A DNA stretch of 34,285 nt from an uncultured delta proteobacterium (lineage in GTDB: Bacteria; Desulfobacterota; Binatia; UBA9968), in contig CAWJBB010000075.1 of assembly GCA_963840855.1 (NCBI GenBank), forward strand, positions 1 to 34,285, given 5' to 3'. The translations under genes were made by a program, and so were the position numbers. A model generated the notes under the pieces. It worked only from the letters and a program-made list of their open reading frames with translations, searched no databases and was not told the origin of the DNA. Below are positions 4,380 to 26,517 of this stretch, in pieces. The number at the start of each line of letters is the position of its first letter. Positions within the stretch are counted from its first letter, which is position 1.

Positions 4380-4380
4380 C

Positions 4381-4524
4381 GTTCAAGGTTCAAAGTTCAA
4401 GGTTCAACGTCTCGGATCCTAACCCGGATCCACGACATTTTTCGCGTTCGAGAAGTAAGCCTCGGTCGGGCCAAGACCCGGAATCGGATTGAAAACCTTG
4501 AACTTTGAACGTTGAACATTGAAC
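4381..4524. repeat. Inverted arrays of 7-bp GTTCAAN tandem repeats
   Basis: GTTCAAG GTTCAAA GTTCAAG GTTCAAC (4381-4408) and CTTGAAC TTTGAAC GTTGAAC ATTGAAC (4497-4524). Confidence 0.9.
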
Positions 4525-4595
4525 TGACGAAGTTTGAACCGCCAAAGGCTGCGCCGTTGCTAACCCGAGTCCGCTAGATTATTCTTACAAGTTAC

Positions 4596-10445: not shown

Positions 10446-11330
10446 ATGAATACTTTTCGCACCACTATACTGCTAGCTGTCCTTACGGCGCTGCTGGTCT
10501 GGATCGGTGACATGCTGGGTGGTCGCCAGGGTGCGGTTATAGCTCTAGTCATTGCCGGTGGCATGAACTTCTTCAGCTATTGGTTCAGCGATAAGATCGT
10601 TCTCAAAATGTATCGTGGCCAGGAAATAACCGCCAACGACGACCCGGAACTCTATGGGCTGGTCAGTGACCTGGCCACCAGGGCGGGACTGCCTATGCCC
10701 AAGGTTTACTTAATTCCGGAAGAAACCCCTAACGCGTTCGCCACCGGGCGTAATCCGCAACATGCCGCAGTGGCGGTGACCCAAGGAATCCGGCGCATTT
10801 TGAACAAACGCGAGCTTGCCGGCGTGCTCGGACATGAACTCTCCCATGTCGTGAACCGGGATATTCTTGTCAGCACCATCGCCGCGACCCTGGCTGGCGC
10901 CATCAGTTATATGGCGCAGATGGCGCAGTGGGCAATGATTTTCGGTGGCAATCGTGACCGCGACGACGAAGGCGGCGGCAGCAACATATTTGGATTGATC
11001 GTCATGATGATCGTGGCGCCGCTGGCGGCAATGCTGATTCAAATGGCGGTGTCGCGTTCGCGTGAATACGGCGCCGATGCAGGCGGCGCCAAGATCACCG
11101 GCGATCCGTTGGCGCTCGCCAGCGCGTTAAAGAAGTTGCATATCGGCTCGCAGCAGATTCCGCTTCATGCGAGCCCCGCAGCGGCCAACGCCACGGCCCA
11201 TATGTTTATCGTGAGTCCTTTAACCGGCCGCAGCATGGCCGCGCTGTTTAGCACCCATCCGCCGATGGAAGAGCGCGTCCGCCGGCTCGAAGAGATGGCC
11301 AGGACTTCACCAACGGCGCGGCCGTACTAG
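10446..11330 (+). CDS. htpX: Zinc metalloprotease HtpX (peptidase M48)
   Basis: [29 protein letters not shown]; GGGGG-type RBS upstream. Confidence 0.95.
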
Positions 11331-11335
11331 AGCAA

Positions 11336-11387
11336 GTTCAAAGTTCAAGGCCCGCCCTGAGCCCGGCGAACGGGTCTAAAGTTCAAG
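11336..11387. repeat. GTTCAA heptamer array interrupted by a 25-nt REP-like insert
   Basis: GTTCAAA GTTCAAG [GCCCGCCCTGAGCCCGGCGAACGGG] TCTAAA GTTCAAG. Confidence 0.65.
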
Positions 11388-11389
11388 TT

Positions 11390-11427
11390 AAGCCACGCCG
11401 AGAGGTACCCTCGGCGTGGCTTTTTTT
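11390..11427 (+). terminator. Rho-independent terminator of htpX
   Basis: 13-bp stem AAGCCACGCCGAG / CTCGGCGTGGCTT; the right arm runs into a T7 tract (11421-11427). Confidence 0.9.
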
Positions 11428-11481
11428 GCCGAGTCGAGACCATCTTCCTCACGCCTCACTCCTTTCGCCTCATGCCTAGTT

Positions 11482-11530
11482 TCACTCGATCACCTTTTCC
11501 GCCCTCATTAACACGACGGGGTGGAATCTC
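11482..11530 (-). pseudogene. Orphan 3' tail of an ABC solute-binding protein (COG2984-like family)
   Basis: Translates EIP/PVVLMRAEKVIE* with a 1-nt frameshift; matches the family C-terminal consensus IPPxVLxRADKVIx. Confidence 0.65.
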
Positions 11531-11568
11531 GCGATAATACGTTCGAGCCGAAGTTTGGACCCTGGAGA

Positions 11569-12831
11569 CTAGATACTCGCCTGATTCCAGGGCAGCCTGG
11601 CGAGGACCATAGACATGCCGCAGCTGTTGGTCACTCCCGCATAGACAAGACCGGCGCCAATTAGCGCCGACACCCCGTAGCCAGCGGGATGGACCCACGC
11701 GCCTGTGATAACGCCGAGCACGGATAACAGGCCCGCGGCAATACGCACTTGCCGCTCCAGCGAAATCACGCTGCGCTCGCCGCGCACTAACGGGAGGTCT
11801 GCCGATGTCCACGCGTTGGTGCCGCCATCGACATGCACAACATTGGTGAAGCCAGCGGCGCGGAGCCGCTGGGCGGCCAACTGGCTGCGCGTGCCGGTCT
11901 GACAGACGCAATAGAGCGGGGTCTCGGCGCCGAACCGCGTCAACAACGCTGGCGGATCGAGCCGTTCGAACGGAACATTGACCGCACCCGCGATGCGCAA
12001 GCTGGCAAACTCGCCAGGCGTGCGCACATCTAGGATGTGCAATCTCCCAGAGCCGGCTAGAACCGACAGTTGCTGCGCCGACACGCTACGCAAAGGTGTA
12101 CCGGCTTCAAGTGCGGCCTGCACCACGCGGGCGCCATCCGATTCAGATAAGCCCACGCCACCGGCCAGATTGGCCGGCACGGCCTCTTGGATGCGACTGG
12201 GCGTGGGCAGATTGAGGTTGTTCATGATCGCGATAAACTCCTCGCGACTTTTGCCGGCCAGGCGCGCATTGAATTGCTTTTCTTCACCGACGCTGCTCAC
12301 CCTGCGACCCTTATAGTCATGGCCGGGGTAAACCAACACCTGATCGTCCAGCCGGAACAGCTTTTCGGTGATGCTTAGCCAGAGTGCCTCTGGGCTACCG
12401 TTCTGAAAATCGGTCCGGCCGCAGCCACCGATCAGCAGAGTATCCCCGGTTAGCACGCGATCACGCCACAGATAGGAAACGCTCCCGGAGGTATGGCCGG
12501 GCGTAGCGATCACCAGAATCTCCTCGCGGCCGAACAGAATGACGTTGCCGTCTTCGAGCATGCGGTCGTAGCCTTGCGCGTGACAGTCGTTCGATACCGC
12601 GGTTTGCGCCCCGGTGGCCTGCTTGAGCGCCAGCGAGGCGGTGATGTGATCTGCGTGGACGTGGGTTTCCAGAATGTGCTTCAAGGTGAGATCGTGCTCG
12701 CGGATCAGCTTGAGGTCGCGCTCTAATTGTTCGATGACCGGATCAATCAGCACCGCCTCGTGCGTCTCGTCGTCGGCGATCAGATAGGTATACGTCGATG
12801 AGGTAGGATCGAACAATTGTTTGAAAAACAT
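11569..12831 (-). CDS. Persulfide dioxygenase (ETHE1-like MBL) fused to rhodanese and a DUF2892/YgaP-like membrane domain
   Basis: ETHVHADH, TPGHT, GCGRTDFQ; rhodanese DVRTPGEF...CQTGTRS; C-terminal SLERQVRIAAG...GLVYAGVTNSCGM. Confidence 0.88.
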   Translation of the reverse strand: MFFKQLFDPTSSTYTYLIADDETHEAVLIDPVIEQLERDLKLIREHDLTLKHILETHVHADHITASLALKQATGAQTAVSNDCHAQGYDRMLEDGNVILFGREEILVIATPGHTSGSVSYLWRDRVLTGDTLLIGGCGRTDFQNGSPEALWLSITEKLFRLDDQVLVYPGHDYKGRRVSSVGEEKQFNARLAGKSREEFIAIMNNLNLPTPSRIQEAVPANLAGGVGLSESDGARVVQAALEAGTPLRSVSAQQLSVLAGSGRLHILDVRTPGEFASLRIAGAVNVPFERLDPPALLTRFGAETPLYCVCQTGTRSQLAAQRLRAAGFTNVVHVDGGTNAWTSADLPLVRGERSVISLERQVRIAAGLLSVLGVITGAWVHPAGYGVSALIGAGLVYAGVTNSCGMSMVLARLPWNQASI

Positions 12832-13028
12832 AAAGCCTCCGATTCGGATGTTGTCACCCGACGATCTACCCCTACAGCAGCACGGGTGAATTCGGTCCTG
12901 ATCGCTCCCTGATGATTATGATCCAGCTTCTTCCATGACAATAACACGCCTAGGGTTCTTGGGTATCCCGACCATAAATTTCCGCGGTCCCGCTAGGTTG
13001 GGTCGAACAATGCCCGTCGTTGGCCTGA

Positions 13029-13092
13029 GATGGAACTGAACGCATCAGCCAATTCTTCCAGGATTTATTGGATGAAGAAATCAAGTGCAATC
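13029..13092 (+). repeat. Island palindromic site copy A (degenerate, full length)
   Basis: GATGGAACTGAACGCATCAGCCAATTCTTCCAGGATTTATTGGATGAAGAAATCAAGTGCAATC. Confidence 0.7.
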
Positions 13093-13119
13093 ATGGCAGC
13101 GCAGCTTGGTTCTTTTCCA

Positions 13120-13249
13120 TCACTTGATCAGCTTATTCGCCCTGGTTAGCACCTCAGCGGGACTTTTTTCGGCTGCTGCGCGTCGGCTATGACTCCAACA
13201 GCAAGGAGGATCACTATGGACAGGATTCCAAGACACCAGCTTTTTTCAT
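13120..13249 (-). pseudogene. Internally deleted 'mini' ABC solute-binding protein gene
   Basis: Signal-peptide region MKKAGV/..ILLAVGVIADAQQPKKVP (1-nt deletion vs the copy at 24677) joined directly to the C-terminal PAEVLTRANKLIK*. Confidence 0.75.
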
Positions 13250-13378
13250 TGCAGACACCATTTGCGCATTACGCGGAAGGTAACAGAAAAAAGTGACATT
13301 TACGACAGAAGGCGAAAGATATCCGTCGAGTGGGAAAACCAGATTTTTAGCCTGAGATTGAACTGATCGACGCGTCAG
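13159..13378. repeat. ~220 bp direct repeat, copy 1 (SBP 5' end + leader + site)
   Basis: Closely similar to 24585-24807, e.g. shared CATTGCAGACACCATTTGCG, TGACATTTACGACAGAAGG, CCAGATTTTTAGCCTGAGATTGAACTGA. Confidence 0.92.
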
Positions 13379-13390
13379 TAGAAATCAATC
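13356..13390 (+). repeat. Island palindromic site copy B (internally deleted)
   Basis: GATTGAACTGATCGACGCGTCAGTAGAAATCAATC. Confidence 0.8.
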
Positions 13391-13646
13391 ATATGGTCGT
13401 AGACGATCAGCGGGTTTATCGGTCCTGTTTCAGTTCGTCATGGACGACACCTGGACAGTGGAGAAAGGTGTCCATGCCCCAGGATTGTTCATCCTGTGTG
13501 CGATTGTAACTAGTCCAGTCGAAAGCGGTTTTTCATCAAGGTGTCCGCGTGGTGACCAGGGCAAGAGGCAAAAATCGGAGCTGAGTGTGAAAGCGTTAGA
13601 GGAATTGCAAGAGAAGGCTAAGAAAAACCCGAAGTAGAAACCGTCC

Positions 13647-13778
13647 CACCGTGAGATGCACAAGAAAAGCTCGGATGTCCTCCTTGCTGAGCTGATCTGG
13701 TGATTTCTTGTGATATCGGGCCAGTCTGCTCACCGCATAGACGTAACATGCCTGCGTTGCAGGAGAGAAATTCCGTAG
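13647..13778 (-). pseudogene. Fragment of a tyrosine recombinase N-terminal SAM-like domain
   Basis: LRNFSPATQACYVYAVSRLARYHKKSPDQLSKEDIRAFLVHLTV resembles Phage_int_SAM_4-type N-termini; no start and no catalytic domain. Confidence 0.75.
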
Positions 13779-14307
13779 GCTTTGGTACCCTACAAAAGAA
13801 TTAACATTGCCATTCGTGCGTTTAACGAAATGCGCCTTCCGCTGAAGGTTGTCGGAGAGGGCCCGTTGCAACGCCGGCCGGCTGGAACGAAATGCCAGGT
13901 CGAACATAGAATTTCTCGGTTGGGTTGACGAGTCGGCCTTGGCTGAGCTATACGGCTGTCAAGCACTCATTTTCCCTGGAGAAGAAGATTTTGGTATTGT
14001 CCCCCTTGAGGCTCACGCTTGTGGCAGGCCGGTCCTCGCATGTGGGAAAGGCGGGGTGCTCGAAACGGTGATTCCAGTGAAGGCAAGCGCTGAAAACGAC
14101 GGGGCGCCCACTGGAATTTTTTTCTCGGAGCAGACCCCAGAGCATTTAATTGAAGCAGTTGAGCTTTATCAAAGGATGGATAGCTTCTTTGAGCCAGGAA
14201 AAGTACGTGAACACGCCGCGCAATTTTCGGCCCAACGTTTCAGAAAGCAAATTTTCGAATACATCCAGGCCCGTTTGAGCGAGTGGGGAGTGGCTAACCC
14301 GTGCTAA
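13779..14307 (+). pseudogene. 5'-truncated, frameshifted GT4 (family 1/RfaB-like) glycosyltransferase
   Basis: ALVPYKRINIAIRAFNEMRLPLKVVGEGP, then a GCCG duplication (13873-13880) shifts frame into IEFLGWV...EEDFGIVPLEAHACGRPV. Confidence 0.8.
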
Positions 14308-14720
14308 TGCAACGCAGCGAGTTCTTCCAGAGTCTGATGATGCTCAACGACCTCTTTTTTTTGAGCGTCGCCTGGTGGCTCGCCTACCTGATCCGCTTTG
14401 AAACCGATTTGTTCCCGGAACCTGAACCGCATCTTCTCGTACACTATAGCATCGCCTGGCTCATCATCTTGATCGTTTGGGCAGTGGTTTTTTACTGGTT
14501 GGATTTCTATCGTCCCCTGCGACTGTCTGGCCAAAAGCGTGAACTGGTCGACGTGCTCAGGGGCCACAGCCTTGCCCTGGTTATTTTTCTCGCAATCCTG
14601 TTTTTGCTTCGCGCCATCGTTCTTTCCCGGATTGTGCTCATTCTTTTTGCGTTATTGAGCTTTAGCTTTCTTAGTTTAAGTCACATTGTTTTTCGAGAAA
14701 GGTTAAGGTTTTTCCGCTGA
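14301..14720 (+). pseudogene. N-terminal fragment of an undecaprenyl-phosphate glucose phosphotransferase (WcaJ-like)
   Basis: Four TM segments with D..FLSVAWWLAYLIRF and LSRIVL motifs; overlaps the GT stop; ends before the CoA-binding and Bac_transf domains. Confidence 0.7.
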
Positions 14721-14762
14721 CGAGGCTGCTGGGGATCTGACCAACGCTACATTTCCGCTCAA

Positions 14763-14802
14763 GATTGAACTGAACGACGCAACAGTCGCGTCTTGTAGGA
14801 TT
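14763..14802 (+). repeat. Island palindromic site copy C (right part missing)
   Basis: GATTGAACTGAACGACGCAACAGTCGCGTCTTGTAGGATT. Confidence 0.88.
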
Positions 14803-14803
14803 A

Positions 14804-14848
14804 AAGCGGCGCGCCTTGCGGCGCCTCCGGTTCAGCGCGTTGTTAAGC
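14804..14848 (-). mobile_element. Truncated canonical integron attC-like site
   Basis: Minus strand GCTTAAC (RYYYAAC) AACGC GCTGAACC GGAGGCGCCGCAAGGCGCGCCGCTT, ~25 bp after a stop codon; R' (GTTRRRY) is absent and site C occupies its place. Confidence 0.55.
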
Positions 14849-14872
14849 CGTCTTAGCTGCGTCATGCGCGTT

Positions 14873-15451
14873 TCACTTGAACTGAACCGAGGGGCAGGCG
14901 ACGCTGCCGTACGAGCAAAAGACGCAGCAGTGGCCTGGTTTCGGGCGCAGCGTCGTGTGGCAGCCCAGGCATTCATAGAAGTACACGCATGCGTCCGTCG
15001 GCATGGTCTCGTGGCTTTGGTGACCGCAATCAGGACAAGTAATGGTGGACTGTAACACCGCTGATTCAAGGGGCGAATCGGGACAGCACGGCGGCTCATT
15101 GGCGAAGACGCCGGGATGCTCTATTGGGCGTTCGAGGCGGTCGACATAGTGCGCCGGGCGTCGATGAAATTCCTCCAAACAGTGCGGACATCTGCAAAAG
15201 TAAAAGACGCGGCCCGCGTACTCGTCGCGGACAGCATGCGATGCTGGTTTTTCAGCCAAGCATACCGGACAGACTTCTAGGGATTCAGTCTCTCTAAGGT
15301 AAGGCTCTGGGTCCTTAACGAAGAGGTCGCGGCAACCGGCACAGCAGAAGAAATACTCGACGTTCCGATACCGGAAAGAGAGCGTCGGAACCGGGGTGAT
15401 TCCAAGTCGGACCAGGGAGCAGCCGCAGGTTGGGCAGATCAGGGGGTTCAT
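14873..15451 (-). CDS. Cys-rich metal-binding protein: tandem YHS/TRASH-like domains fused to a GDCCVxC-type domain
   Basis: CPTCGC...YFFCCAGC, CPVC...FYFCRCPHC, then QSTITCPDCGH...MPTDAC...GHCCVFCSYGSVACP; 22 Cys in 192 aa; GGAGG RBS. Confidence 0.8.
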   Translation of the reverse strand: MNPLICPTCGCSLVRLGITPVPTLSFRYRNVEYFFCCAGCRDLFVKDPEPYLRETESLEVCPVCLAEKPASHAVRDEYAGRVFYFCRCPHCLEEFHRRPAHYVDRLERPIEHPGVFANEPPCCPDSPLESAVLQSTITCPDCGHQSHETMPTDACVYFYECLGCHTTLRPKPGHCCVFCSYGSVACPSVQFK

Positions 15452-15538
15452 GGATAGTCAACCTCCGTGGAGGGTCTCACTATTAGCACACTCCTTAGGA
15501 CAAGGTCTTCCTGTGGAAAACCGTAGTGTCTTGCATAG

Positions 15539-15640
15539 CTATTTACGCTCACCCTTTTTTTGCCATAGGCCGAAAGCCACCAGGACTATGAACAAACCTA
15601 GAGCGGGGAGCAGCAGATAATCGAGATATGGGATGAGCAT
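15539..15640 (-). pseudogene. merF: C-terminal half of a MerF-like mercury transporter
   Basis: MLIPYLDYLLLPALGLFIVLVAFGLWQKKGERK* contains the MerF YLDYvLLPAL motif; in-frame stop upstream, so the CC-containing first helix is missing. Confidence 0.65.
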
Positions 15641-15752
15641 GCGCAACACACATCACAAGTCAGACGGTCCACCCTAAGTCAATGCGCCACCATCCGGTTC
15701 CGACCATCTTGTCCGTAAACTGTGCGGTATCGATAATCGATTTCCATTCTAG

Positions 15753-15818
15753 CTTTGCACTGAACGACGCAACGGACAAATCTCACAGGATTGAGACGTC
15801 GGAGAATTCAGTTCAATC
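15753..15818 (+). repeat. Island palindromic site copy D (full length)
   Basis: CTTTGCACTGAACGACGCAACGGACAAATCTCACAGGATTGAGACGTCGGAGAATTCAGTTCAATC. Confidence 0.88.
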
Positions 15819-15993
15819 GTAACGTTTCGGGTGGGTGGTGCTTCGAGCGTCGGTTTCAACCGGAAAGTTGGTGACGCGGCAACACAATCGCCCGTGATTG
15901 AGAGACGTGATGACCGCACATCAATTGTTTCTCTCGGAAGGTCTTGCCTCAGCGTTTCTTCTTTCCAGTTTTTGCTTTGGTGGCCAGGTCATG

Positions 15994-16908
15994 CTAGGCG
16001 GAAAGCGCTTTGGCTGCACCCTTGATCTTTTCTGGTCCTTCTCTAGTCAACTCGTTGATGAGTTTGACAACGTTGGGATGCTCCAATCCCGATACCAGGA
16101 AAGTCCATCTCCAGGCGCGGTGGGTCTTCGTCGAAATCTCCTCTTTCTCTGCCTCCGTGAACCTGCGGCCGGTCACATTTTGCAGAGTCTCTATGTTCAG
16201 CTTGATCTGCTGCAACAGTAACCCATCGATAGCTCCCCCAAGTTCGAGGAGCTCATCCACAGCAGTTTCTCGCTCCTCTAGGGTCGCCGTCTCGGCAATT
16301 TCGTCGATTAGCAGGGTATCAAGCTTGGCGTGTTGGGCCTCTTCCATCCAATGAAATCTCAAAAGATCGCGGAACAGCTCATCGAGACCCGACCCATCAC
16401 GCACGTGTTCGACGTAATGGAGCTGGGTAAACCATTCGATTACCGTGGTCAAGTACAGCGCGGCCAGCACCGACTTGCTCAGGACGACCTTCGCTACATC
16501 TTCCCGACCGGGGATTAAGCCGCACTTCGCGCCAAAGCCCTGGTCGAACAAAGCCATCGAGCGGCGAAAGAGTTCCTGATGCTTGAGCTCTTCCTCGGCG
16601 AACCGCAGCAGTGAGCGGAGCCTGACTTCCTCCCCGTGGATGTCCTTCAACGCCGTTTGTGTCACCATGGGAATAATAAATTCCTCCACGAAAGCGAAGA
16701 TGTGGCAGTAGGCGTTGCCCATGATCTGGTTCAACTGGCGCTTCTCGTTGTCGTTCAGACATGTGATATCGTCAACACCGCTCAACCGATTCGGCAGGAA
16801 ACGCTTCGAGAAATCGAAATTCTTGCCTGCAAAAACATCGTCCTCTTTCCACGCTACCTTCTTGGAATTGTCGAGACATTCCTTGTAGGAGTAATTGTGC
16901 GAAAGCAT
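15994..16908 (-). CDS. Ferritin-like diiron oxygenase (AurF/N-oxygenase-like)
   Basis: ORF 15994-16923; likely ATG at 16908 after GGAGG; diiron ligands VEEFI, EEELKH, IEWFT, MEEAQH. Confidence 0.78.
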   Translation of the reverse strand: MLSHNYSYKECLDNSKKVAWKEDDVFAGKNFDFSKRFLPNRLSGVDDITCLNDNEKRQLNQIMGNAYCHIFAFVEEFIIPMVTQTALKDIHGEEVRLRSLLRFAEEELKHQELFRRSMALFDQGFGAKCGLIPGREDVAKVVLSKSVLAALYLTTVIEWFTQLHYVEHVRDGSGLDELFRDLLRFHWMEEAQHAKLDTLLIDEIAETATLEERETAVDELLELGGAIDGLLLQQIKLNIETLQNVTGRRFTEAEKEEISTKTHRAWRWTFLVSGLEHPNVVKLINELTREGPEKIKGAAKALSA

Positions 16909-17032
16909 CGTGCACCTCCTCAAAGTAAAGGGATGTTAGGCTTCTTCGAATGATTCTGAAAAGCCAGCACACTCTGGCTACCCCAAGCTATTTTATCAGT
17001 TCGATCAAAGTCAAGCTCTATTATCGTCGTAG

Positions 17033-17095
17033 GATTGAACTGGACGCATCAGTCGCGTCTTGTAGGATTGAGTCGTAGGAGAAATCAGTTCAATA
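17033..17095 (+). repeat. Island palindromic site copy E (full length)
   Basis: GATTGAACTGGACGCATCAGTCGCGTCTTGTAGGATTGAGTCGTAGGAGAAATCAGTTCAATA; ends ATTGAACTG/CAGTTCAAT are a perfect inverted pair. Confidence 0.9.
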
Positions 17096-17317
17096 CTGAA
17101 GGCTTTCGGTTGGGCTTGAAACGGTCAGTTGATCACTGTATTCGCCCGCGGCGAGAGCTTTGTACAAATCCAGAGTGCGACAAGTTTTAGTAATCCGCCC
17201 GTAGTCCAACGGGATGATTGGCGTTGAAATGCTTTCAAGTTTTTGGATAAGCGTGTTGCAAGTTCGAGGTATGTCACGATGCAGGACTCAATAAAATAAA
17301 AAGCAGCCTGTGGCTGC

Positions 17318-17737
17318 TTAAACAGATCGGGTTCTTATTAACCGCGCCATTTTTGCTTTCAATGTGCTCTTAGCGGTTTCAGATTCATACCACAAGAGCG
17401 ACCTATCAACAAATACAACAGCCACAAGTTCGCTATTATAAACATCCGGAATCGCGCGTCTGTGCTCATCTAAACGTTGTTTTAGTGTCTGAAGCGTAAC
17501 AAGTAAACCGTAATCGGTATTATAAAAGCCGATCATATAGTCCATGGTATTATTATTTTTGCTTGAAAATGGCTCCGCGCCAATTATCTCTCTGCCGCAG
17601 TTTTCCAAAAGCTTACGGACGTCAGAATTCATTGTTTTCGAAATGAATTCCCGTCTTTCGTCTGCAAACAGACCAGGCGCCGTCAGTACAAACACCAATA
17701 CTTGTAAGAATAGGGCCGTACAAAAGATTTTTTTCAT
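17318..17737 (-). CDS. Hypothetical secreted protein (AT-rich region)
   Basis: 139 aa ORF with signal peptide MKKIFCTALFLQVLVFVLTAPGLFA; no recognised family. Confidence 0.6.
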   Translation of the reverse strand: MKKIFCTALFLQVLVFVLTAPGLFADERREFISKTMNSDVRKLLENCGREIIGAEPFSSKNNNTMDYMIGFYNTDYGLLVTLQTLKQRLDEHRRAIPDVYNSELVAVVFVDRSLLWYESETAKSTLKAKMARLIRTRSV

Positions 17738-17854
17738 GACCTACTCTATTTTCATTTCCTTTTTTAAGGCTATCCCGGCTTAAGGGCGACTGACCCCGCA
17801 TAGAAGTCGCGCTTCCGATGGCAGGGTAGGGCGAAGTCAGCCCTCTTTCAGTGC

Positions 17855-17870
17855 AGCAATCCACATGCCA
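17855..17870 (-). promoter_or_regulatory. Sigma-54 (-24/-12) promoter
   Basis: Minus strand TGGCAT-GTGGA-TTGCT matches TGGCAC-N5-TTGCW; ~120 bp upstream of the 17737 start. Confidence 0.6.
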
Positions 17871-18179
17871 GCAGAAGCGCTTGAAATTTATTGAACAAAC
17901 CTTTCACAGTGTTTGAATAAGTAGACACTCAGAGTTCCAATTAGTAGGAAATTTACTCACCATCTTCTAACTCTAAAAACGAGCCGGGGGTTCTGGTTCT
18001 GCCGCAACCCCTTAACAAACCAACTCACGTCCGAGGGATTCCCGGGTCGGACCGGGGCCAGGATCATGGTCAGGCATGATATTTGTTATTTGGAGGAATC
18101 TGCAGGCGTTGGGGCCAAACGGGTCTTTTGCTGATAGTTGTCGCACGTTCATCACACCAAAAAACCAAAATCAGCCTGA

Positions 18180-18206
18180 GATTGAACTAAACGCGACAGA
18201 TAAATC
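18180..18206 (+). repeat. Island palindromic site copy F (left half only)
   Basis: (CAGCCTGA)GATTGAACTAAACGCGACAGATAAATC. Confidence 0.75.
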
Positions 18207-18630
18207 CGTGATCGGAAATAGTCCAAACCGTAGCGCACCGACGCTACCCTAAATCATTTCCTGGAGTTTCTTCTTTACGCTGATCTCCGCAACCAGATGC
18301 GTGAGATCATCCGTGATCGGAATCAACCGGGATGCGGTCGCTGTATCCCGTTTCTCGTTCAACCAACGGCAAACCTGCATCCGTTCATCATGGATTCGAC
18401 TTAACCGTTCGTAAATCCCGCATCCATCGCTGGCCCTCGTCATTTCTCGATGATGAGCAGCGGTCTGCGGCCAAAGTCTCCGACGCAAAATCGTATCGAT
18501 AGCATCCCACTGGCCAAAAAGAAGATGATCGCGGCGTGAGCTGGAGGAACCAACAACAACTGACAACGAGGATTTAACTTACCGCTGTCAGATCAGGTGT
18601 TAACTTATGAACAATGGGGGTCTACAGGCA

Positions 18631-18758
18631 TGATTTTTACGGCAGAAGGAGAACCAGATTCATCGAGGGGGAAAAGGCTAATTTCGACGTAGGATTGAAT
18701 TGATCGACGCAACGGTCAAATCTCACAGGATTGAGTCGATGGAGAAATCAAGTTCGAC
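18631..18758 (+). repeat. Island palindromic site copy G (core 18693-18758) with conserved leader
   Basis: Core GATTGAATTGATCGACGCAACGGTCAAATCTCACAGGATTGAGTCGATGGAGAAATCAAGTTCGAC; leader TGATTTTTACGGCAGAAGG...TCGAGGGGGAAAA matches the leaders of copies B and H. Confidence 0.88.
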
Positions 18759-19061
18759 GCCGAGAAAGCGGCTTTAAACTGGTTCGTGTACACTTCGACG
18801 GTTGGGACCTTTGGGGAATCAGGGGAAAGGCCAGGCTTGTATGGGGGATTCTGCTGAAAAACCCTATCCTGATTTCGGGACAAGATCGAGAGTGTTCTCG
18901 GCTTCGACTGCCATGTCGATAAGTTCCTTTGGCGGCGTTCCCCACGTAACCAGCGCGCGATTGGACAAGGTGAGGCCGAAAGATGTTGTTTTCTCTGACA
19001 CGCCGTGAGCATAGGAAGAGGCCGCGCCATCTTTCAAGCGCTGCCTGTGCCGCTTTATAGA

Positions 19062-21758
19062 TCAGTTGTAGGGGATCATCTTGGATGATGTTCGTGAGTG
19101 TTCAATTAGAGACCCGACCTTTTCAACGAGGTCATCGACCGAATATGGTTTGTAAATGCAGTCCTTCACGCCGGCCTGGAAGAGTTCTGATTTCACTTGC
19201 GGCTCTAGATAACCGGTTGTGATGATAATCCTTATCCCCGGGTTTTGCTCCTTCAGCTCATGAATCACGTCAAAGCCGGTAATTTTGGGCAAGCCGAGAT
19301 CGAGCACCACGATATCAATCTCTTCTTTATGATGGTGATAAAGGTCTATCGCTTCTTCGCCGTCCATAGCAGTCAGGGTTTGGTAGCCCGCTTTCGACAA
19401 GACCTCTCTCAAAAGGCGAACCAGCGCCTCTTCGTCTTCGATCACGAGAACGGTTCCTCGACCACTAGCGTATTTTCGACTGGCGCCTTCCTTTTTCACT
19501 ATCTCATCAACCGAGGATTTTCCTTCCGCCCGAAGCACCGGCAAATAGAGCCGAAACGTGGTGCCGCCTCCAGGCTTACTTTCCACTTCGATGAAACCCT
19601 TATGCTCTTTGACGATGCCGTAGACGATTGCGAGTCCCAGCCCCGTCCCTTCACCGATTCCTTTAGTAGTGAAGAACGGCTCGAAAATTCGCTCCCGGAC
19701 TTCTTCTTTCATTCCCATCCCGGTATCGCTGATCACAATTGAGACATACGACTCCGTGCCGGCTTCGAGGCGGTGCTCCCGCGCTTTGTTTTCGTCGATC
19801 CTTTCCGTTCTGACTGTGAGTTTCCCGCCTGCCAGCATGGCGTCGCGCGCATTGACGCAAATATTGAGCAGCGCTTGGCTCAATTGATTTGAATCTGCCA
19901 TTACCGACGGCAGTCCAGGGTCAAGATCCAATGCGACGTCAATAATTTTGGGAAACGATTGTTTGATCAACTCGCTGATCGTCAAAACGAGGTCGTTGGC
20001 ATCGATGGGAGCTAACTGCGCTTTCGTCCTGCGCGCCACGGTCAAAAGTTGCCGCACCATGGACGTGCCGCGTTTGATTTGTTGGTCGATGGTTTTCAAA
20101 CTTTTGTCAATCTCCTGCTCGGTTAACTGTTCCTCGCCGATGAGCTCAGCGTAACCTTGGATAATAGTGAGGATATTGTTGAAATCATGCGCGATGCCGC
20201 CGGCCAGCGTCCCGATGCTTTCCATTTTTTGCGCGTGGCGGAGTTGCTCTTCAAGTTTTTTTTGCTCCTCGATGGTTCTTAATAGAGCCGCGTTGGCTTG
20301 CTTCAAATCGGCCGTGCGCTCCTGAACTCGCCTTTCGAGCTCTTCGTTGGCTTTGACCAAATCGCTTTTTGCTTGACGCACGAGTTCGTCCGCATGCTTT
20401 CGCTCCATAAACTGGCCGATCTGGCCGCCGATATCGCTGACCATTTGCAGGAAGCGATCGTCCGGTTCCCTAATCTCGCGGCTGAAGCATTCGATGACCC
20501 CAAGGGTCTTGTCTCCCAGTTTGATCGGGAAGCCAAAGGCACTATGTAGCCCCTCTTTGATCGCTACCGGCGCGCGTCTGAGATTGCTGTCCGTCGCCAC
20601 ATCGGGGATCCAGACCGCCCTGCCGGTGCTCCAAACTCGGCCTGGCAAATCAGTTTCACGAGTAAACCTGCCTTCTCTAGTGACGGCCTCGAACTGCGAT
20701 GCTTGTATTGACGGCGGATGCCACACCTCAAAGCAGCGTAATTCACCGCTAGCTCGATCCATGCTCCAAACGGCGCCCAGATCACATCCGGACCGTTCGC
20801 ATAACACCTGGACGATTTTGGCGGCAGCCTCTTTGAGAGCTGGAGATTCTGCCAAGATACGGCTCACTGCATCTTGAACCTCTAGAAGATGCTCGGCCCG
20901 CCGGCCCTCGGAAATGACTGCAGCAAGCACCAACGCCGCAATGGCGATAGTGCCCATAAAGGATTGCAGGTGCAGCAGCGATTCATTAGGGCTTGCATGG
21001 GCAAACGGACCAACGCCATTTAGCGTCCCGGCCAACGCGATCGCAGAGATGATAAACGCCGAAGTCACGGCGCCGCGCTGACCGAACCGGAACGCCGCCC
21101 ACAAAAGCGGCAAGAGCAGTATGTATTCCGAGCTAGAAGGGATGCCTAGTAAAAACACAAGGTAGGCAAGCAAGATCAGCGATAGCAGCAAACCTGCAGC
21201 CTCAACGATCCATTTGGTTTTCAATTGAAAATAAGGCGGTGTCAGCCAAATCAGCAGGATGGGGGTAACGATCAAATCGCCGACTGCATCGCCCAGCCAC
21301 CAGGTGAACCAGATGGCTGCGTACTGATTCCAGTGAGCGAAGCCACCCAGGGTCAAGCTGGTGACGCCGAAGGTCGCGCTAACCGCGGTGCTCAGAATCG
21401 GAGCGAGCAGGACGAACTTGAAAATGTTTCTCGCTCGTTCAAAGGCTTTCGTGCCATTGGCGAAGCGATTGATCGCCCAAGCGCCTAAAAGCGCCTCGAG
21501 CGTGTTACCGGCGGCAATGCCAAGTGTGGTTGCCACCGACCCTTGCGTGGTGATGTTCACCAGAAAGGCGCCGAGAAAAATTCCCGGCCAAAGTTTATAT
21601 CCCCAGAGGAGCAGTGCCGCCAAAGCTAACCCGGTCGGGGGCCAAACCGCAGAGGCACTCGCGTGTATATACGCCCATGAAAGCCCGAGCTTGCCGGCGC
21701 AGAAATAAACCGCGGCGAGCGCCAAAATCTCTGTCAACGTGCGGAACCCTGATCTCAT
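19062..21758 (-). CDS. Hybrid sensor histidine kinase (MASE1-GAF-HisKA-HATPase-REC)
   Basis: MASE1 motifs VWPPTG, GNTLEA, WWLGD; GAF; H-box GGIAHDFNN; G boxes DTGMG, GTGLGL; C-terminal receiver DLGLP...KP. Confidence 0.92.
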
Positions 21759-22064
21759 GTTTACATCTTTGCCTGTGGCCCGCAGGAGCTTATTTGTAGA
21801 GAAAATCTCGATCTCAATTGCTGTTTGGAGCGAAAGACGGACACCGAATCGTACACGGAACGATCACGCTCAGTTTTGGTTCCGTACTTTGATTGAGCCT
21901 TCAGCTAAGTTGTAAACGGCAAACTCTAAATGCTAGCTCGCTCCCATTTTTCCATATTGTCAATCCAATTCACCGAACGTTGAACATGTAAACCATTTGA
22001 ACCACGGCTGGATGCGTACGTATTGGACGGCTTAGGTGCGTCACCGAAGCGCAGCCATTCGATT

Positions 22065-23063
22065 TCAACGTGCCGAAATGACGGGACGGGAGTCAGGTAG
22101 GCGATTGGATGTGTCACCCTTGGAGATGTCGGGCCAAAAGACTTCGATCCGGTCTTTGCCATTGTGTTTGGCGGTATAAAGCGCTCGATCCGCGTCCTCT
22201 ATCATCTGGTTCGCATTGGCGTAGGGATGAATCGATGTGGAGCTAACACCTACGCTCAGCGTCAGGGAAAAGTAAGCATTGTTCGCGGAAAAGACCGATG
22301 AACGGATCTCGCCGAGAAGCCTTTCCGCGGCTGTTAGAGCATTTTCGTGATCGGTCTCGGGCAAGATAACAACGAATTCCTCGCCACCAAACCGTGATGG
22401 AAAATCGCTCTGGCGCGTAGTCGTGCGCAAGACCTGCGAGATCCTTACGAGAGCCGCATCACCGCCATTGTGACCGTAAGTGTCATTAATATCTTTGAAA
22501 TTGTCGATGTCGAGTATTAAAAGGGAGAGGGGATGACCATTGCGGCTCGCCCGCTCGAACTCGTCCGTGAGTCGTTTCTCGAACGCGCGGCGGTTGTACA
22601 GGCCCGTCAACGAGTCGGTCTGGGTCTGGTACTCCAGGTTCTGTTGGTATTGGACGATTCGCGATCCGACGCGAATCCGCGCCAGCAATTCGGAAAACGA
22701 AAATGGCTTCGTGACATAGTCGTCTGCCCCCGAGTCGAGTCCGCGGACCCGGTTCCCTTCTTGGATTAGGGCGGTGGTCAGGATGAGATAAAGATTCTTC
22801 AGATCAGCGTCGCTGCGAATAGCTTTGATCAATTCAAAGCCATCCATCTTGGGCATCATGACATCGGACAAGGCGATATGCACTTGCTCCGCTCGGAGCT
22901 TCTCGAGTGCTTCAACGCCGTTCGCCGCGGTAATGACGCGGTAGCCGTTGCGACGCAGACGCATGGCCAGCAAATCGCGTTGATCAGGAAGATCTTCGAT
23001 CACCAGGACGCAGAGTGAATTGCCCGCTTGTTGATTGTTATCCGTAGGATCTATTTTAGTCAT
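22065..23063 (-). CDS. Response regulator diguanylate cyclase (REC-GGDEF)
   Basis: REC with DVMMPKMDG and TKPF; DSLTGLYNRR; I-site RQSD; active site GGEEF. Confidence 0.92.
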   Translation of the reverse strand: MTKIDPTDNNQQAGNSLCVLVIEDLPDQRDLLAMRLRRNGYRVITAANGVEALEKLRAEQVHIALSDVMMPKMDGFELIKAIRSDADLKNLYLILTTALIQEGNRVRGLDSGADDYVTKPFSFSELLARIRVGSRIVQYQQNLEYQTQTDSLTGLYNRRAFEKRLTDEFERASRNGHPLSLLILDIDNFKDINDTYGHNGGDAALVRISQVLRTTTRQSDFPSRFGGEEFVVILPETDHENALTAAERLLGEIRSSVFSANNAYFSLTLSVGVSSTSIHPYANANQMIEDADRALYTAKHNGKDRIEVFWPDISKGDTSNRLPDSRPVISAR

Positions 23064-23570
23064 CCGTGTCTCTTGTTCTTTATATGACTCATCGGTCGGT
23101 ATCGCATTCTACTTAAGCGCCTTGGGTTTGCTGATTTCCATTTGAACCGTCCCGTTGCCCTCCACCATCAACGCCGGATAAAAGCGTTATAGGTAACTGG
23201 CGCTGCCCGCGGACTGCAAACCCGTTGGGGAAGCTTTAATTTTGAATGTCGCAAATGACCGTCCTGGGGTTTATTCTGCCCAGTCGCAAGCAAGACATTC
23301 GCTGCTGAGTCTTTGCGAACCATGGCCCTTGGGCGTGTGCTTTCATGAATGATACCACTACACTTCGGAGGCAGCCAATGGTCGTAAAGAAGTGAATCAG
23401 GAGATTGGTAGGTGTAGTCATGTTACCGTGGTTCCCTGGCGTGGCTTTTACGGAATATTTGGTGAGCCGCCGTTCGCTCAAGGAAGACCTCAAAACAGCC
23501 TGGCTGTCATGGAAAGAGACATTCTGGTTTGGAGCTAAGGACCACGAGAGAAAGCCGATGAACCCTTTGC

Positions 23571-24677
23571 TCACGTCGTGACAATCGTATAGGTGCGCAA
23601 GAGGTTTCCGTCCGGTTGCTTCCAGCTATCCCATAGACCGGCGAACGCGAACGACTCCCCGGACTTGAGTTTGAAGCGCATGGGAACCTTGTCCTTTCCT
23701 TCTTTCCGCCACTCGTAAAATCCATCGGCAAGAACGAGACAGCGGCGCGTCCCTAGCAGGTGTTTGAAAGCCGGTCTTTCGGTAAGCGTTTCAGCGCGGG
23801 CGTTGATCATCTCGTTACCGATGGCCGGATCTTTGGCCCACCAGGGGATCAATCCCCAGCGGAACAGCTCGAGGGTTCGTTTTCCCACGGCTTGAATGAT
23901 CACGGGCGCTTCTTGAGTCGGAGCGATGTTATAGCGGGGCTTTAAACCAAAGATTTCGTCAACATTCTTTCCGTTAGCATTCATTAGCGGCCCCCCCGTG
24001 GGATAGAGTCCATCCGGGCGCTGCTTGTTTAGCGCAGCGAATACCCTCTCGAAATCGTCCGTGCCTCGTACCTCCCAAGGCTGAATAGTCAACCTCAGTG
24101 CGCGCGCCGCGACTGGGAGAAGCTCTTTCACGTCGAGTACTTGGGCTGGAATGGCCGGATCGTAGAGAACCGCGACACGGGCAACTTTGGGAACGGCTTC
24201 TTTGAACAGCTCCAGCCGCTTCCCGCCTAGTTCTCTGTTAAGGTTTGTAAGCCCGGTGACGTTGCCGCCGGGACGGGCAAGGCTTTCAACCAGGCCTGCC
24301 TCGACGGGATCGGACCCACCCGACATAACAATGGGAATCGTCTTGGTCGCATTCTTGGCCGCCTGGATCATCGGGCTCCCTCCTGCGACCACAATGATAT
24401 CGACCTTGAGACGCACCAGCTCGGCCGCAAGCTCAGGGAGCCGATCGGGCTTCCCCTCCGCATATCGGTACTCGATGGCGATGTTCTGTCCTTCTATGTA
24501 GCCACGCTCGCGCAGAGCCAGCCGAATTGCCTCGGCACGGGCGGAGTCAGTAGCTGACTCGAGGTTTGATAGATAGCCTATCCGAGGGATTTTCTTCGGC
24601 TGCTGCGCCTCGGCTATGACTCCAACAGCAAGTAGAATCACTACGAACAGGATTGACGAGACCCCAGCTTTTTTCAT
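23571..24677 (-). pseudogene. In-frame chimera: N-terminal two-thirds of an ABC solute-binding protein (COG2984-like) fused to an internal SRAP/YedK fragment
   Basis: MKKAGV..AEAQQPKKIPRIGYL..DPVEAGLVESLARPGGNVTG..PLMNANGK | NVDEIFGLKPRYNIAPTQ..RWGLIPWW..INARAET..RCLVLADGFYEW..TYTIVTT*; junction ~23966. Confidence 0.85.
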
Positions 24678-24807
24678 TGCAGACACCATTTGCGTATTAC
24701 GCGGAAGGTAGCAGAGAAAAGTGACATTTACGACAGAAGGCAAAAAAGTATTCGTCGAGCGGAAAAACCAGATTTTTAGCCTGAGATTGAACTGAACGAC
24801 GCAACAG
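24585..24807. repeat. ~220 bp direct repeat, copy 2
   Basis: Closely similar to 13159-13378. Confidence 0.92.
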
Positions 24808-24845
24808 ATTGATCTCCACGAAAGATTGGCTCGTAGGGGAGATCT
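24785..24845 (+). repeat. Island palindromic site copy H (right end degenerate)
   Basis: GATTGAACTGAACGACGCAACAGATTGATCTCCACGAAAGATTGGCTCGTAGGGGAGATCT. Confidence 0.85.
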
Positions 24846-25118
24846 CTAAACGGAACGACGTTGCCGGCGCGGGCACCGGATGTGTCAGTGATATTTGTAA
24901 CTGATTTCGATTCAGGAGATTTCGGTGGGACTGATTCGGCTTTTTCTCTATGATCGCCTGCCGTCGATGACGAGATATTTAATTTGAACTTTCGGTGTTT
25001 AGTTTTGTGATTGGGCGGGGTGACCAGTTTCCGTGTAGGAGCCATCCTAAGATGACACCAGAAGAACGCCGGCCAAAACCGAGAACTTCATCCAGCATTG
25101 CCCGTAGAGGATTGCGTT

Positions 25119-25682
25119 CTATGGCGCGGGTGACTCCGCGTTGACCTCCCATAAATAGAGCGTGTGATGCCTTTCGATGTCGGGGTCCTTCCCCGGCTCA
25201 AGATTTACAACCCGCGTAGGTTTCCAGTCGTCGATGTCATAATCATGAGACACGATACGGGATCCCGGTTTGAGTTTCTGTAGCTTGGATCGAATCGCGT
25301 TGTTGAACCATTTGAACATGTAGAGTGTGACTACCGTTGCCTTGAAAATATCCGTTTGGGTCCCGTCCTCCGCGCGAAATTCCAGCAGATGGCTGACCCC
25401 TTCCTCTGTGGCCTTTTGTTTAGCCTCTGCTACTCGTTGTGGGTCCAAATCAACTCCGACGCCTCGCGTGCCATATTTTTTCGCGGCATGGATGAGTATA
25501 CGTCCATCGCCGCAGCCAAGGTCGTATATTACGTCGCCTTTCCTGACTCCAGCCAGTTCGAGCATACGCTCAACAACTGGCATCGTCGTGGGCACAAACG
25601 GGATGGGCTCTTGCGACCAGACAGTGGAGTTATTCAAAACGAATAGTAAAGCTGAGAATGATGCGATTTGCTTGAGCTTCAA
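25119..25682 (-). CDS. Class I SAM-dependent methyltransferase with a signal-peptide-like N-terminus
   Basis: IPFVPT...VVERMLELA, YDLGCGDGRI, ATVVTLY, LKPGSRIVSHDY; TTG start after GAGGTGG. Confidence 0.85.
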   Translation of the reverse strand: MKLKQIASFSALLFVLNNSTVWSQEPIPFVPTTMPVVERMLELAGVRKGDVIYDLGCGDGRILIHAAKKYGTRGVGVDLDPQRVAEAKQKATEEGVSHLLEFRAEDGTQTDIFKATVVTLYMFKWFNNAIRSKLQKLKPGSRIVSHDYDIDDWKPTRVVNLEPGKDPDIERHHTLYLWEVNAESPAP

Positions 25683-25845
25683 GTGGCCACCTCTCAGTCG
25701 TAAAATTTGGTTGTCATCCGTTCAGAATCGCATGAAATGTCAAACGACCCGTGGGTTGGAATCAGCATGAGTTAAGGTTAAGGGCCTAGGCCATTTTGCT
25801 GCGAATCTTTCCAAGCCTACCCGAAACTAAACGCTAATAGAAACT

Positions 25846-25866
25846 AGGGGTTATGTGCTAACCCCT
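25846..25866 (-). terminator. Hairpin overlapping the esterase stop codon (possible terminator)
   Basis: AGGGGTTA-TGTGC-TAACCCCT, followed by a weak T-rich tract on the minus strand. Confidence 0.35.
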
Positions 25867-26517
25867 CGTATTCAATACCTTCTCGTCTAACCAGGTCGAC
25901 AATTCGCGGAGGTTTGCCGGCGTGATATCATGTCCCATATCGTACTCGCGAAAAGTGAGCGGCAGTTTGAGCTGACGCAACCGTTCTACCGAGTCCCGCG
26001 CGCGGTCGACCTCTATCATGGAGTCTTGCGTGCCATGTTGGATTAGCGTTGGCAGCGCCTGGACTGCATCGCTCACGTTCAGCCGCGCTTCGAGCTCTTT
26101 CGGAAACCAACTGCTGAGGACGGCCAGCGCGGCAAATCGTTCTGGATGGCTCAAGGCGAGACTGTAGGACATGACGCCGCCCTGGCTGAAGCCGAGCAGC
26201 GCGAGCTTTTTTCGATCGATGGGATAGCTTGCCAGGCAGCGCTCAATGAAAGCCTCCAGTTCTCGCCGCGACGATAGCATGGCGTCGACATCCGGCGGGC
26301 CGCCCATGCTCATGGGATACCAGGCGAAACCGGTCATGCCTGGACCAATGGGCGTTTCCAACGGTCCCTGCGGGCAGATCATCAGAAATTTGCCGCCGCA
26401 CAGAAGCGGCGCCAGCCCCAACAGGTCCATGGCGTTGGCGCCCCGGCCATGCAGCGTCAAGATCGTAGGGAATGGGCCTTCACCCAGGGGTTGGTAAATC
26501 GTGTGAATCAGGTTCAC
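25858..26517 (-). CDS. Phospholipase/carboxylesterase (alpha/beta hydrolase)
   Basis: LHGRG, nucleophile GFSQGG, HGTQD, MGH catalytic motifs; GTG start after GGAGG. Confidence 0.9.
   Translation of the reverse strand: MNLIHTIYQPLGEGPFPTILTLHGRGANAMDLLGLAPLLCGGKFLMICPQGPLETPIGPGMTGFAWYPMSMGGPPDVDAMLSSRRELEAFIERCLASYPIDRKKLALLGFSQGGVMSYSLALSHPERFAALAVLSSWFPKELEARLNVSDAVQALPTLIQHGTQDSMIEVDRARDSVERLRQLKLPLTFREYDMGHDITPANLRELSTWLDEKVLNTRG

Follow-up and report, generated by a model that had tools for sequence, protein, structure and literature searches.

Storage and shuffling of single genes by site-specific recombination is known from two systems: integrons, in which a special integrase acts on folded attC sites, and the dif modules of Acinetobacter, which are recombined by the host proteins XerC and XerD. 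Here, we describe arrays of gene modules in the genome of an uncultured soil bacterium labeled delta proteobacterium, in which the modules are bounded by two classes of short sites resembling those of dif modules. The arrays were approached through one stretch of DNA, hereafter the window, which is the whole of contig C75 (34,285 bp) of a genome of 7.1 Mb, 93 contigs and 56% G+C with a contamination estimate of 8.27%. A sequence-only reading of the window had proposed that a palindrome of about 65 bp, present in eight co-oriented copies between unrelated genes, is a recombination site acted on in trans. We consider a module-shuffling system driven by site-specific recombination to be the best explanation of the arrays, and a reasonably probable one.

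The closest known system is that of the dif modules on Acinetobacter Rep_3 plasmids, which are delimited by pdif (XerC/XerD) sites. In published accounts, a pdif site has two binding arms and a short central region, with one arm better conserved, and recombination in Acinetobacter needs identical or near-identical central regions (PMC13141974, PMC11705084); a further source on dif modules is PMC10132070. The present arrays share with dif modules the inversion of neighboring sites, the alternation of two module classes (C and D there, A and B here), the occurrence of empty modules and the targeting of sites by insertion sequences; central regions matter there, and here they fall into two classes, each nearly invariant. 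The arms, however, lack the ATAA-center-TTAT motif of Xer sites, as given in PMC11705084, and end in CTGA(A/T) beside the center. The arrays also differ in lying in chromosomes of uncultured soil bacteria labeled Candidatus Binatia or delta proteobacterium, in carrying a dedicated Xer-like recombinase as a module where Acinetobacter uses host XerC/XerD, and in keeping one orientation for all sites of a type and for nearly all genes, with only two central-region classes seen. By analogy, the system would work like dif modules, yet it appears to be a member neither of that family nor of the integrons. A search of the literature on Binatia/Binatota and on Xer-like or dif-like modules, mostly at the level of records and without supplements, found no such arrays outside Acinetobacter, and in the papers found, the dif-module system was described from Acinetobacter only, mainly from plasmids.

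The claim of one site of about 65 bp did not survive closer inspection: the palindrome, of about 66 bp, is a composite of one type-1 and one type-2 site, each of 30 nt and each also found singly, which are inverted relative to one another and separated by a linker of 6 nt. Across the 61 type-1 and 75 type-2 sites of the genome, one arm, GATTGAACTGA, is conserved at 75-100% per position, and the central hexamer, as read from this conserved arm, distinguishes the types, with CGACGC (93-98%) marking type 1 and TTCTCC (88-97%) type 2. The second, inverted arm is degenerate (33-93%), and the inverted-repeat match between the arms amounts to 5.7 and 5.95 of 11 positions, versus 2.9 and 3.0 in shuffled sequences. 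Two arms around a short center, one of them more conserved, is the build of a tyrosine-recombinase core site, and the present sites have this build. Halves of the composite occurring alone comprise 15 left and 32 right ones, some of the listed left halves being composites with a decayed right arm. In true solo right halves, the break falls close to the linker, around positions 31-36 of the 66-nt unit, and true solo left halves lose similarity earlier, shortly past the central region; the solo type-1 sites, which are left halves, are themselves 30-nt palindromes.

An nhmmer profile built from 27 full copies gave 96 matches at E<=1 on 15 contigs of the genome, forming about 13 arrays of 2-52 kb, and on each contig all matches lie on one strand, except for a single palindromic self-hit. 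The copies are thus clustered and co-oriented, as had been supposed from the window, and are not scattered in random orientation. Spacings of about 1.19 kb recur in the arrays, and the recurrent unit is a gene for a PF04392 ABC substrate-binding protein, preceded at about 115 nt by one repeat copy and followed at about 28 nt by another; this family has 119 tblastn matches in the genome. A match to an Rfam family, which would have counted against the sequence-only reading, was not seen: the whole window gave none at gathering thresholds, and the stretch 12900-25000 gave none at E<=1.

Of 115 neighboring site pairs, 85 alternate in type, and this alternation corresponds, by analogy, to the topology of Acinetobacter dif modules. 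Class A modules, which run from a type-2 site to the next type-1 site in the orientation of the model (n=43, median 1,185 bp), have their conserved arms facing inward and contain a leader and a single gene or a small co-oriented group; a PF04392 substrate-binding protein gene is a very frequent occupant. Class B modules run from a type-1 site to the next type-2 site (n=42); 35 of them measure only 6-15 bp and seven 1.1-9.1 kb. The usual class B module is empty, consisting of the 6-nt linker alone and yielding the 66-bp palindrome. A substrate-binding-protein homolog is present in 24 of the 43 class A modules and in no class B module (0 of 42). Relatives can carry the gene of a 307-aa Xer-like recombinase in a class B module.

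The question of which recombinase co-occurs with the sites, raised by the sequence-only reading, is answered by this Xer-like gene, which lies between a type-2 and a type-1 site in relatives and in metagenomes. Two further species-level genomes from the genus of the window's organism encode the 307-aa tyrosine recombinase exactly in the class B position, with a type-2 arm 57-71 nt before the start and a type-1 arm just past the stop, and the homology of these two genomes is limited to units of 1,014-1,034 bp whose flanking modules are unrelated. Metagenome contigs provided 72 loci encoding relatives of the recombinase. Of the 48 copies testable past the stop codon, 44 have a type-1 arm there (three of the four exceptions have a shortened arm), and 28 of 42 have a type-2 arm at 57-71 nt ahead of the start. 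On these loci, every site match (105/105) and every substrate-binding-protein match (40/40) shares the strand of the recombinase. Of 60 relatives, 21 have sites, and 5 of these carry the gene, which was not found in any of the 39 without sites; our tallies of relatives include the unpublished genome G009 and the synteny list below the unpublished G015, and no conclusion rests on either.

On the XerC, XerD and XerA models, the 307-aa protein reaches about 200 bits, short of each cut-off, while the integron-integrase model gives it 65 bits against a cut-off of 265; read by eye, it seems to retain the catalytic-type Arg, Lys, His-x-x-Arg, His and Tyr motifs. Its family comprises at least 120 metagenome clusters with 57-100% identity, named only XerC or XerD and many of them on contigs of about 1 kb. 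A search of 72,556 plasmid records found no close relative, all 63 matching records being below 60% identity and the best listed at 32-34%. The host's own XerC and XerD are present in the genome with scores above the cut-offs, and a candidate chromosomal dif on contig C46 (around 134220, minus strand) is unique, has an ATAA-6-TTAT layout and is unlike the module sites. The sole module-borne recombinase copy in the window's genome lies on contig C93 (37645-38633; 96% DNA identity to a sister species) and has seven gaps, several frameshifts and a missing type-1 end; it would be either a pseudogene or the product of assembly indel errors.

Modules recur in different contexts. Window positions 18693-21844 match contig C46 at 104631-107782 with 99.3% identity, the left break falling at a type-1 site and the right break not at a site. 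A 645-bp module with sites on both sides is common to contigs C46 and C50, where its neighbors differ, and positions 64111-66462 of contig C69 equal positions 104930-102579 of contig C85 at 99.96%, starting at a type-1 site. Stretches of 1-3 kb that are 97-99.96% identical were observed between contigs C69 and C85, C46 and C75, and C85 and C93.

The core idea of recombination sites that bound modules and are acted on in trans in this genome is supported circumstantially by the build of the sites, the linked recombinase gene and the reuse of modules. In the mechanism that we propose, the module-borne recombinase would bind the arms, with strand exchange taking place in the central hexamer; in the window's genome it would act in trans, and it would join only sites with a like hexamer. 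Such same-hexamer recombination would account for the fixed orientation, and a gene module together with a neighboring site could be excised, inserted or swapped between arrays. The anatomy of the sites, the gene linkage and the reuse of modules in different contexts are observations; binding and cleavage of the sites, as well as mobility of the modules, are what we infer.

Several observations weigh against this reading. No alternation in type is seen in 30 of the 115 neighboring site pairs. In 14 of the 42 metagenome copies, the region upstream of the recombinase gene is different, with no type-2 arm within 110 nt, and in seven of the eight such copies checked further there is none within 700 nt. 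The gene is lacking in 16 of the 21 site-bearing relatives, though many of these genomes are incomplete, and the window's genome, which has the most sites, has only the frameshifted copy without a type-1 end. Nearly all genes are co-oriented with the sites, which the dif-module model does not predict. As for module reuse, near-identical duplicates on different contigs may be co-assembled strains rather than real duplications, and the pattern would look no different if ordinary homologous recombination between repeats had produced it. The expectation that modules would be found in other contexts with breaks at the sites was borne out as regards recurrence with breaks at sites, but breaks cannot be placed within the hexamer, since arms and hexamers look alike throughout. 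Recombination products, circles and empty sites were not seen; a search of the genome and the fetched loci, a small data set, with the joined flanks of 89 full copies gave no empty site. Site-to-site joints do occur in public metagenome contigs, with sides of 21-39 nt that may stem from other copies or organisms, and these joints are evidence neither for nor against recombination.

Alternatively, the unit of about 1.0 kb could be an insertion element that moves by means of its own tyrosine recombinase, the 66-bp palindromes being internally deleted, non-autonomous copies, the genes between them passive and the solo sites broken ends. The recombinase unit and the 66-bp copy indeed have the same 18-nt ends, the unit forms a discrete block of 1,014-1,034 bp in unrelated flanks, many metagenome contigs with the unit are about 1 kb in length, as a multi-copy element would give, and close relatives at 75-100% identity are numerous. 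We nevertheless regard this explanation as unlikely: the flanks carry no constant target duplication, the small data set searched for the 89 copies held no empty site, 47 solo halves versus about 45 composites are many for broken ends, and neither the strict co-orientation with neighboring genes, unexpected under free insertion, nor the confinement of substrate-binding genes to one module class would be anticipated. Compared with miniature inverted-repeat elements in general, the likeness lies in short palindromic copies that share terminal inverted repeats with a longer, enzyme-encoding unit; the differences are that the enzyme is an Xer-like tyrosine recombinase rather than a transposase of a known insertion sequence family, that no target duplication was seen, and that the copies are co-oriented and clustered. 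A regulatory origin, in which the palindromes would be operators or terminator-like elements of an expanded substrate-binding family, spread by gene duplication without any recombination, is so improbable that we give it hardly any weight. It would fit the position of type-1 sites upstream and type-2 sites downstream of substrate-binding genes at the distances given above, the many units that are tandem paralogs of 1.19 kb, and the size of the family. However, contig C6 (1-16000) holds a tandem run of at least 13 PF04392 paralogs with varied intergenic regions, several of the genes broken, and without recombinase sites, so the repeat is not simply part of the substrate-binding gene family. Moreover, unrelated genes are also bounded by sites, the recombinase gene is nested between sites in many samples, the central hexamer is better conserved than the second arm, and the island in the window shows no promoter or terminator signal above chance, in addition to the absence of an Rfam match.

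We consider it very unlikely that the composites are unusual attC sites of chromosomal integrons or of integrase-less clusters, whose folded single strands the integron integrases of the family would recombine, despite some resemblances. With integron cassettes, the arrays share a co-oriented gene-then-palindrome layout, AAC/GTT ends and the frequent lack of a nearby recombinase, and with sedentary chromosomal integrons a lineage-specific, uniform site sequence. Described features of an attC site include an R box that is paired, a spacer that is not, an L box and a loop (PMC5027507); a folded composite would mimic the box, spacer and loop arrangement, its paired outer boxes, non-complementary spacers, inner boxes and loop mirroring that layout. 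An attC hairpin would also be expected to have extrahelical bases. The composites fold into hairpins of moderate stability (-9.7 to -11.1 kcal/mol, z -2 to -4), one copy folding no better than shuffles. In 87 distinct copies, however, the variable positions of the outer arms vary independently (at position 8, CC 46, CT 23, TC 11 and TT 4), so the arms look conserved as sequence and not as a stem; no compensatory change or covariation between the outer arms, and no sign of a hairpin requirement, was detected. The ends ATTGAAC and GTTCAAT, as had been pointed out, break the RYYYAAC/GTTRRRY rule (PMC5027507), by one deviation each, with the AAC and GTT triplets kept. A GTTA motif resembling an attC end lies 3-7 nt upstream of 11 of 72 copies, with one convincing candidate for an attC-like structure, on contig C27, the others giving no clear structure. 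There, an imperfect palindrome of 81 nt (around 176830-176910) has ends that fit a canonical attC, GCCTAAC ... GTTAGCC, and lies 4 nt before a type-2 site. Our own crude attC scan of the island found no canonical attC, the repeat itself being the sole match.

The distribution of integrases speaks to the same question. A full integron integrase is encoded on contig C1 (45951-47012; 442 bits), and an integrase fragment lies on contig C21, but the 101 kb of contig C1 contain no profile match to the sites and no array beside the integrase, and the window has no integrase. Families f1 and f2 have integrases as well as sites, and in the 19 genomes of f3 neither was found, a pattern in keeping with a link between them. 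Within f1 and f2 (41 relatives, including G009), however, 11 genomes have both, 10 sites only, 11 an integrase only and 9 neither; an integrase is thus present in 11 of 21 site-bearing versus 11 of 20 site-free genomes. Membership among the integrons fails on these two counts, as there is no site on the contig of the integrase gene intI and the presence of intI does not track that of sites in f1 and f2. Further differences from integrons are the lack of an adjacent intI or attI, the half sites that stand alone, a gene lying inside a would-be attC, and the low score of the 307-aa protein on the integrase model. Adjoining the integrase on contig C1 (42601-45847) are three tandem tyrosine-recombinase open reading frames (ORFs) of 331, 327 and 336 aa, which we take to resemble a recombinase-in-trio element.

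The suggestion that the repeats are the ends of a rolling-circle or ISCR-like element proved wrong, as an IS91-family element invades type-1 sites and is not their source. On contig C35 (32235-34658), the center of a type-1 site holds an inserted 2.43-kb unit, which encodes a 280-aa tyrosine recombinase and a transposase of the IS91 family (295 bits, cut-off 125), with AACG at both junctions; a GTTC-type target is preferred by IS91 elements. At least the junction on the recombinase side is found again in two further genomes (loci L024 and L050), at L024 together with most of the element, and 5 of the 13 IS91-type matches in the genome lie beside or within site arrays. The window shares with this element a remnant of its recombinase, described below. 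Fragments of IS91-type genes were also seen beside sites on contigs C65, C77 and C85. A link to REP/RAYT was considered and rejected: of ten Y1_Tnp matches none lies inside an array, and the site copies form co-oriented clusters.

Contigs that carry arrays reach 334 kb, and the genomes concerned are labeled Binatia or delta proteobacterium. An exact 21-nt pattern was found in at least 84 stretches of public genomes, mostly labeled Candidatus Binatia or uncultured delta proteobacterium; the labels Pyrinomonadaceae, Blastocatellia, Verrucomicrobiia and Actinomycetota on some site-bearing contigs may be binning errors. In a phylum sample of 400 genomes, 18 had one to three matches, mostly with one mismatch, and a reversed control gave one match. 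In four public metagenome runs, three of them labeled soil, the summed contig depth of window positions 23696-24803 (a substrate-binding protein with its leader) was 110-1,836, and that of the rest of the island mostly 1-60; in 20 public runs, 22-43% of sampled words were present.

Turning to the window itself, the end motif GATTGAACTGA with at most one mismatch has 11 matches, versus 0.69 expected, and none of 100 shuffles reached 11; the matches span 13029-24795, apart from one chance-level match at 4517. At or near each of the eight starts given by the sequence-only reading there is a copy, all on the plus strand and each between long ORFs, and the consensus drawn from them is essentially correct. 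Of the eight full copies that had been claimed, only three or four are two-armed, the rest being halves, with the left half alone at 13356, 14763, 18180 and 24785. Similarly, the statement that no copies lie outside the island applies to the window, barring the match at 4517, but not to the genome with its 96 profile matches.

Composite copies, all on the plus strand, lie at 13029-13091 (decayed; nhmmer model positions 1-65, E 1.6e-7), at 15755-15818 (model positions 3-66, E 5.9e-17), at 17033-17095 (E 3.1e-14) and at 18693-18755. The second of these, which had been placed at 15753, begins with a mutated outer type-1 arm; the third measures 63 nt, with a 3-nt deletion beside the type-1 center, and has a fold z of -3 to -4; and the last, found with the nhmmer profile, has a degenerate outer type-2 (right) arm and starts the 3.15-kb stretch that matches contig C46. 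Type-1 sites on the same strand comprise a solo site at 13356-13390 with an arm, the central TCGACGCG and an inverted arm (a 35-nt hairpin of -5.8 kcal/mol), a site without a type-2 partner at 14763-14804 (model positions 1-42, E 6e-8), and a site followed by unrelated sequence at 24785-24842 (model positions 1-55, E 1.5e-6). A weak type-1-like site, a left half only, stands at 18180-18209; it was detected by a 19-mer search with up to three errors and was not recovered by the nhmmer profile.

The island extends beyond the 13029-24845 first assigned to it. The segment specific to this genome covers about 11349-25876, between convergent genes for an M48 peptidase and an alpha/beta hydrolase (10446-11330 and 25858-26517) that neighbor each other in relatives. 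Homology to genome G002 ends at 11348 and restarts at 25877, with 42 nt between the two points in that genome. The gap between the two genes is 56-110 bp in G004, G007, G011, G017, G020 and G015; overall it is 42-110 bp in seven relatives and wider in three, compared with 14.5 kb in the window, which identifies about 11349-25876 as an insertion. No site is present at the empty M48/hydrolase locus of relatives. A second repeat family, of tandem GTTCAA-type heptamers arranged as long inverted repeats, was observed at 4378-4527 and 11336-11390 of the window and on contig C1 (around 40603-40675); its 27-nt arms are 93% complementary at 4378/4494, a TTGAAC core is common to it and the arms of the recombinase sites, and fragments of it that follow the M48 gene have matches at many positions, both in this genome and in those of relatives.

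Within the island, a conserved leader on the minus strand at 24723-24784, between a type-1 site and the gene of the module, belongs to a repeat family, D1, with further copies at 13294-13355 and 18631-18692; leaders of the D1 type follow most type-1 sites genome-wide. The minus strand also has a chimeric ORF (23571-24743), in which Pfam recognizes an N-terminal PF04392 ABC substrate-binding part (ABC_sub_bind, 1.8e-30, residues 70-240) and a fragment of SRAP, the SOS-response-associated peptidase (2.4e-48, residues 266-390). Genes or fragments for SRAP recur inside arrays, in the window at 23571-24743 and on contigs C27, C50, C67 and C85, and the window fragment is fused in frame to a truncated substrate-binding-protein gene. 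The start of another such gene, with its leader, persists as a minus-strand remnant at 13147-13317, where repeat families D4 and D6 match 24574-24745 and tblastn gives a match at 13158-13312.

The remnant of the recombinase that accompanies IS91 lies at 13641-13802 on the minus strand (Pfam Phage_int_SAM_4), with 78-90% identity to the intact 280-aa protein of contig C35 (33661-34503), whose gene is adjoined by the IS91 transposase gene. It is the only trace of a recombinase here, and the window accordingly has no intact one, as had been stated. Also on the minus strand, Pfam identified a YHS-domain ORF between a type-1 and a type-2 site (14873-15451), which had been taken for a mer remnant; an ORF with weak AurF/diiron-like matches between a type-2 and a type-1 site (15994-16923); and, inside a large module (19062-23063), a hybrid histidine kinase (MASE1-GAF-HisKA-HATPase-REC) with a response-regulator diguanylate cyclase. 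The module of the AurF/diiron-like ORF exists as site-bounded contigs in other soil samples, an example being a 1305-nt contig that covers 15797-17093. What had been called exopolysaccharide (EPS) fragments are glycosyltransferase and CoA-binding fragments. A promoter and terminator scan of the island gave nothing above shuffles.

We tentatively suggest, as a possibility about which considerable doubt is in order, that the arrays represent a third, independent gene-cassette system beside integrons and the dif modules of Acinetobacter, shuffled by a self-encoded Xer-like recombinase acting on two classes of 30-bp sites. A chromosomal system of dif-module layout with a recombinase and a site sequence of its own would mean that variable gene arrays of this build have arisen more than once, and would offer a simple, testable pair of recombinase and site, with 30-bp sites in two central-region classes. 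The paired sites also bear on the origin of integron attC sites: as the paired form has the attC layout, it could show attC-type sites arising from ordinary Xer-type core sites. For the bacteria themselves, the system would mean that modules with their own leaders, above all members of a hugely expanded substrate-binding family, are shuffled in the chromosomes of uncultured soil bacteria, and it would explain why about 13 arrays rich in paralogous binding proteins are found in one soil lineage.

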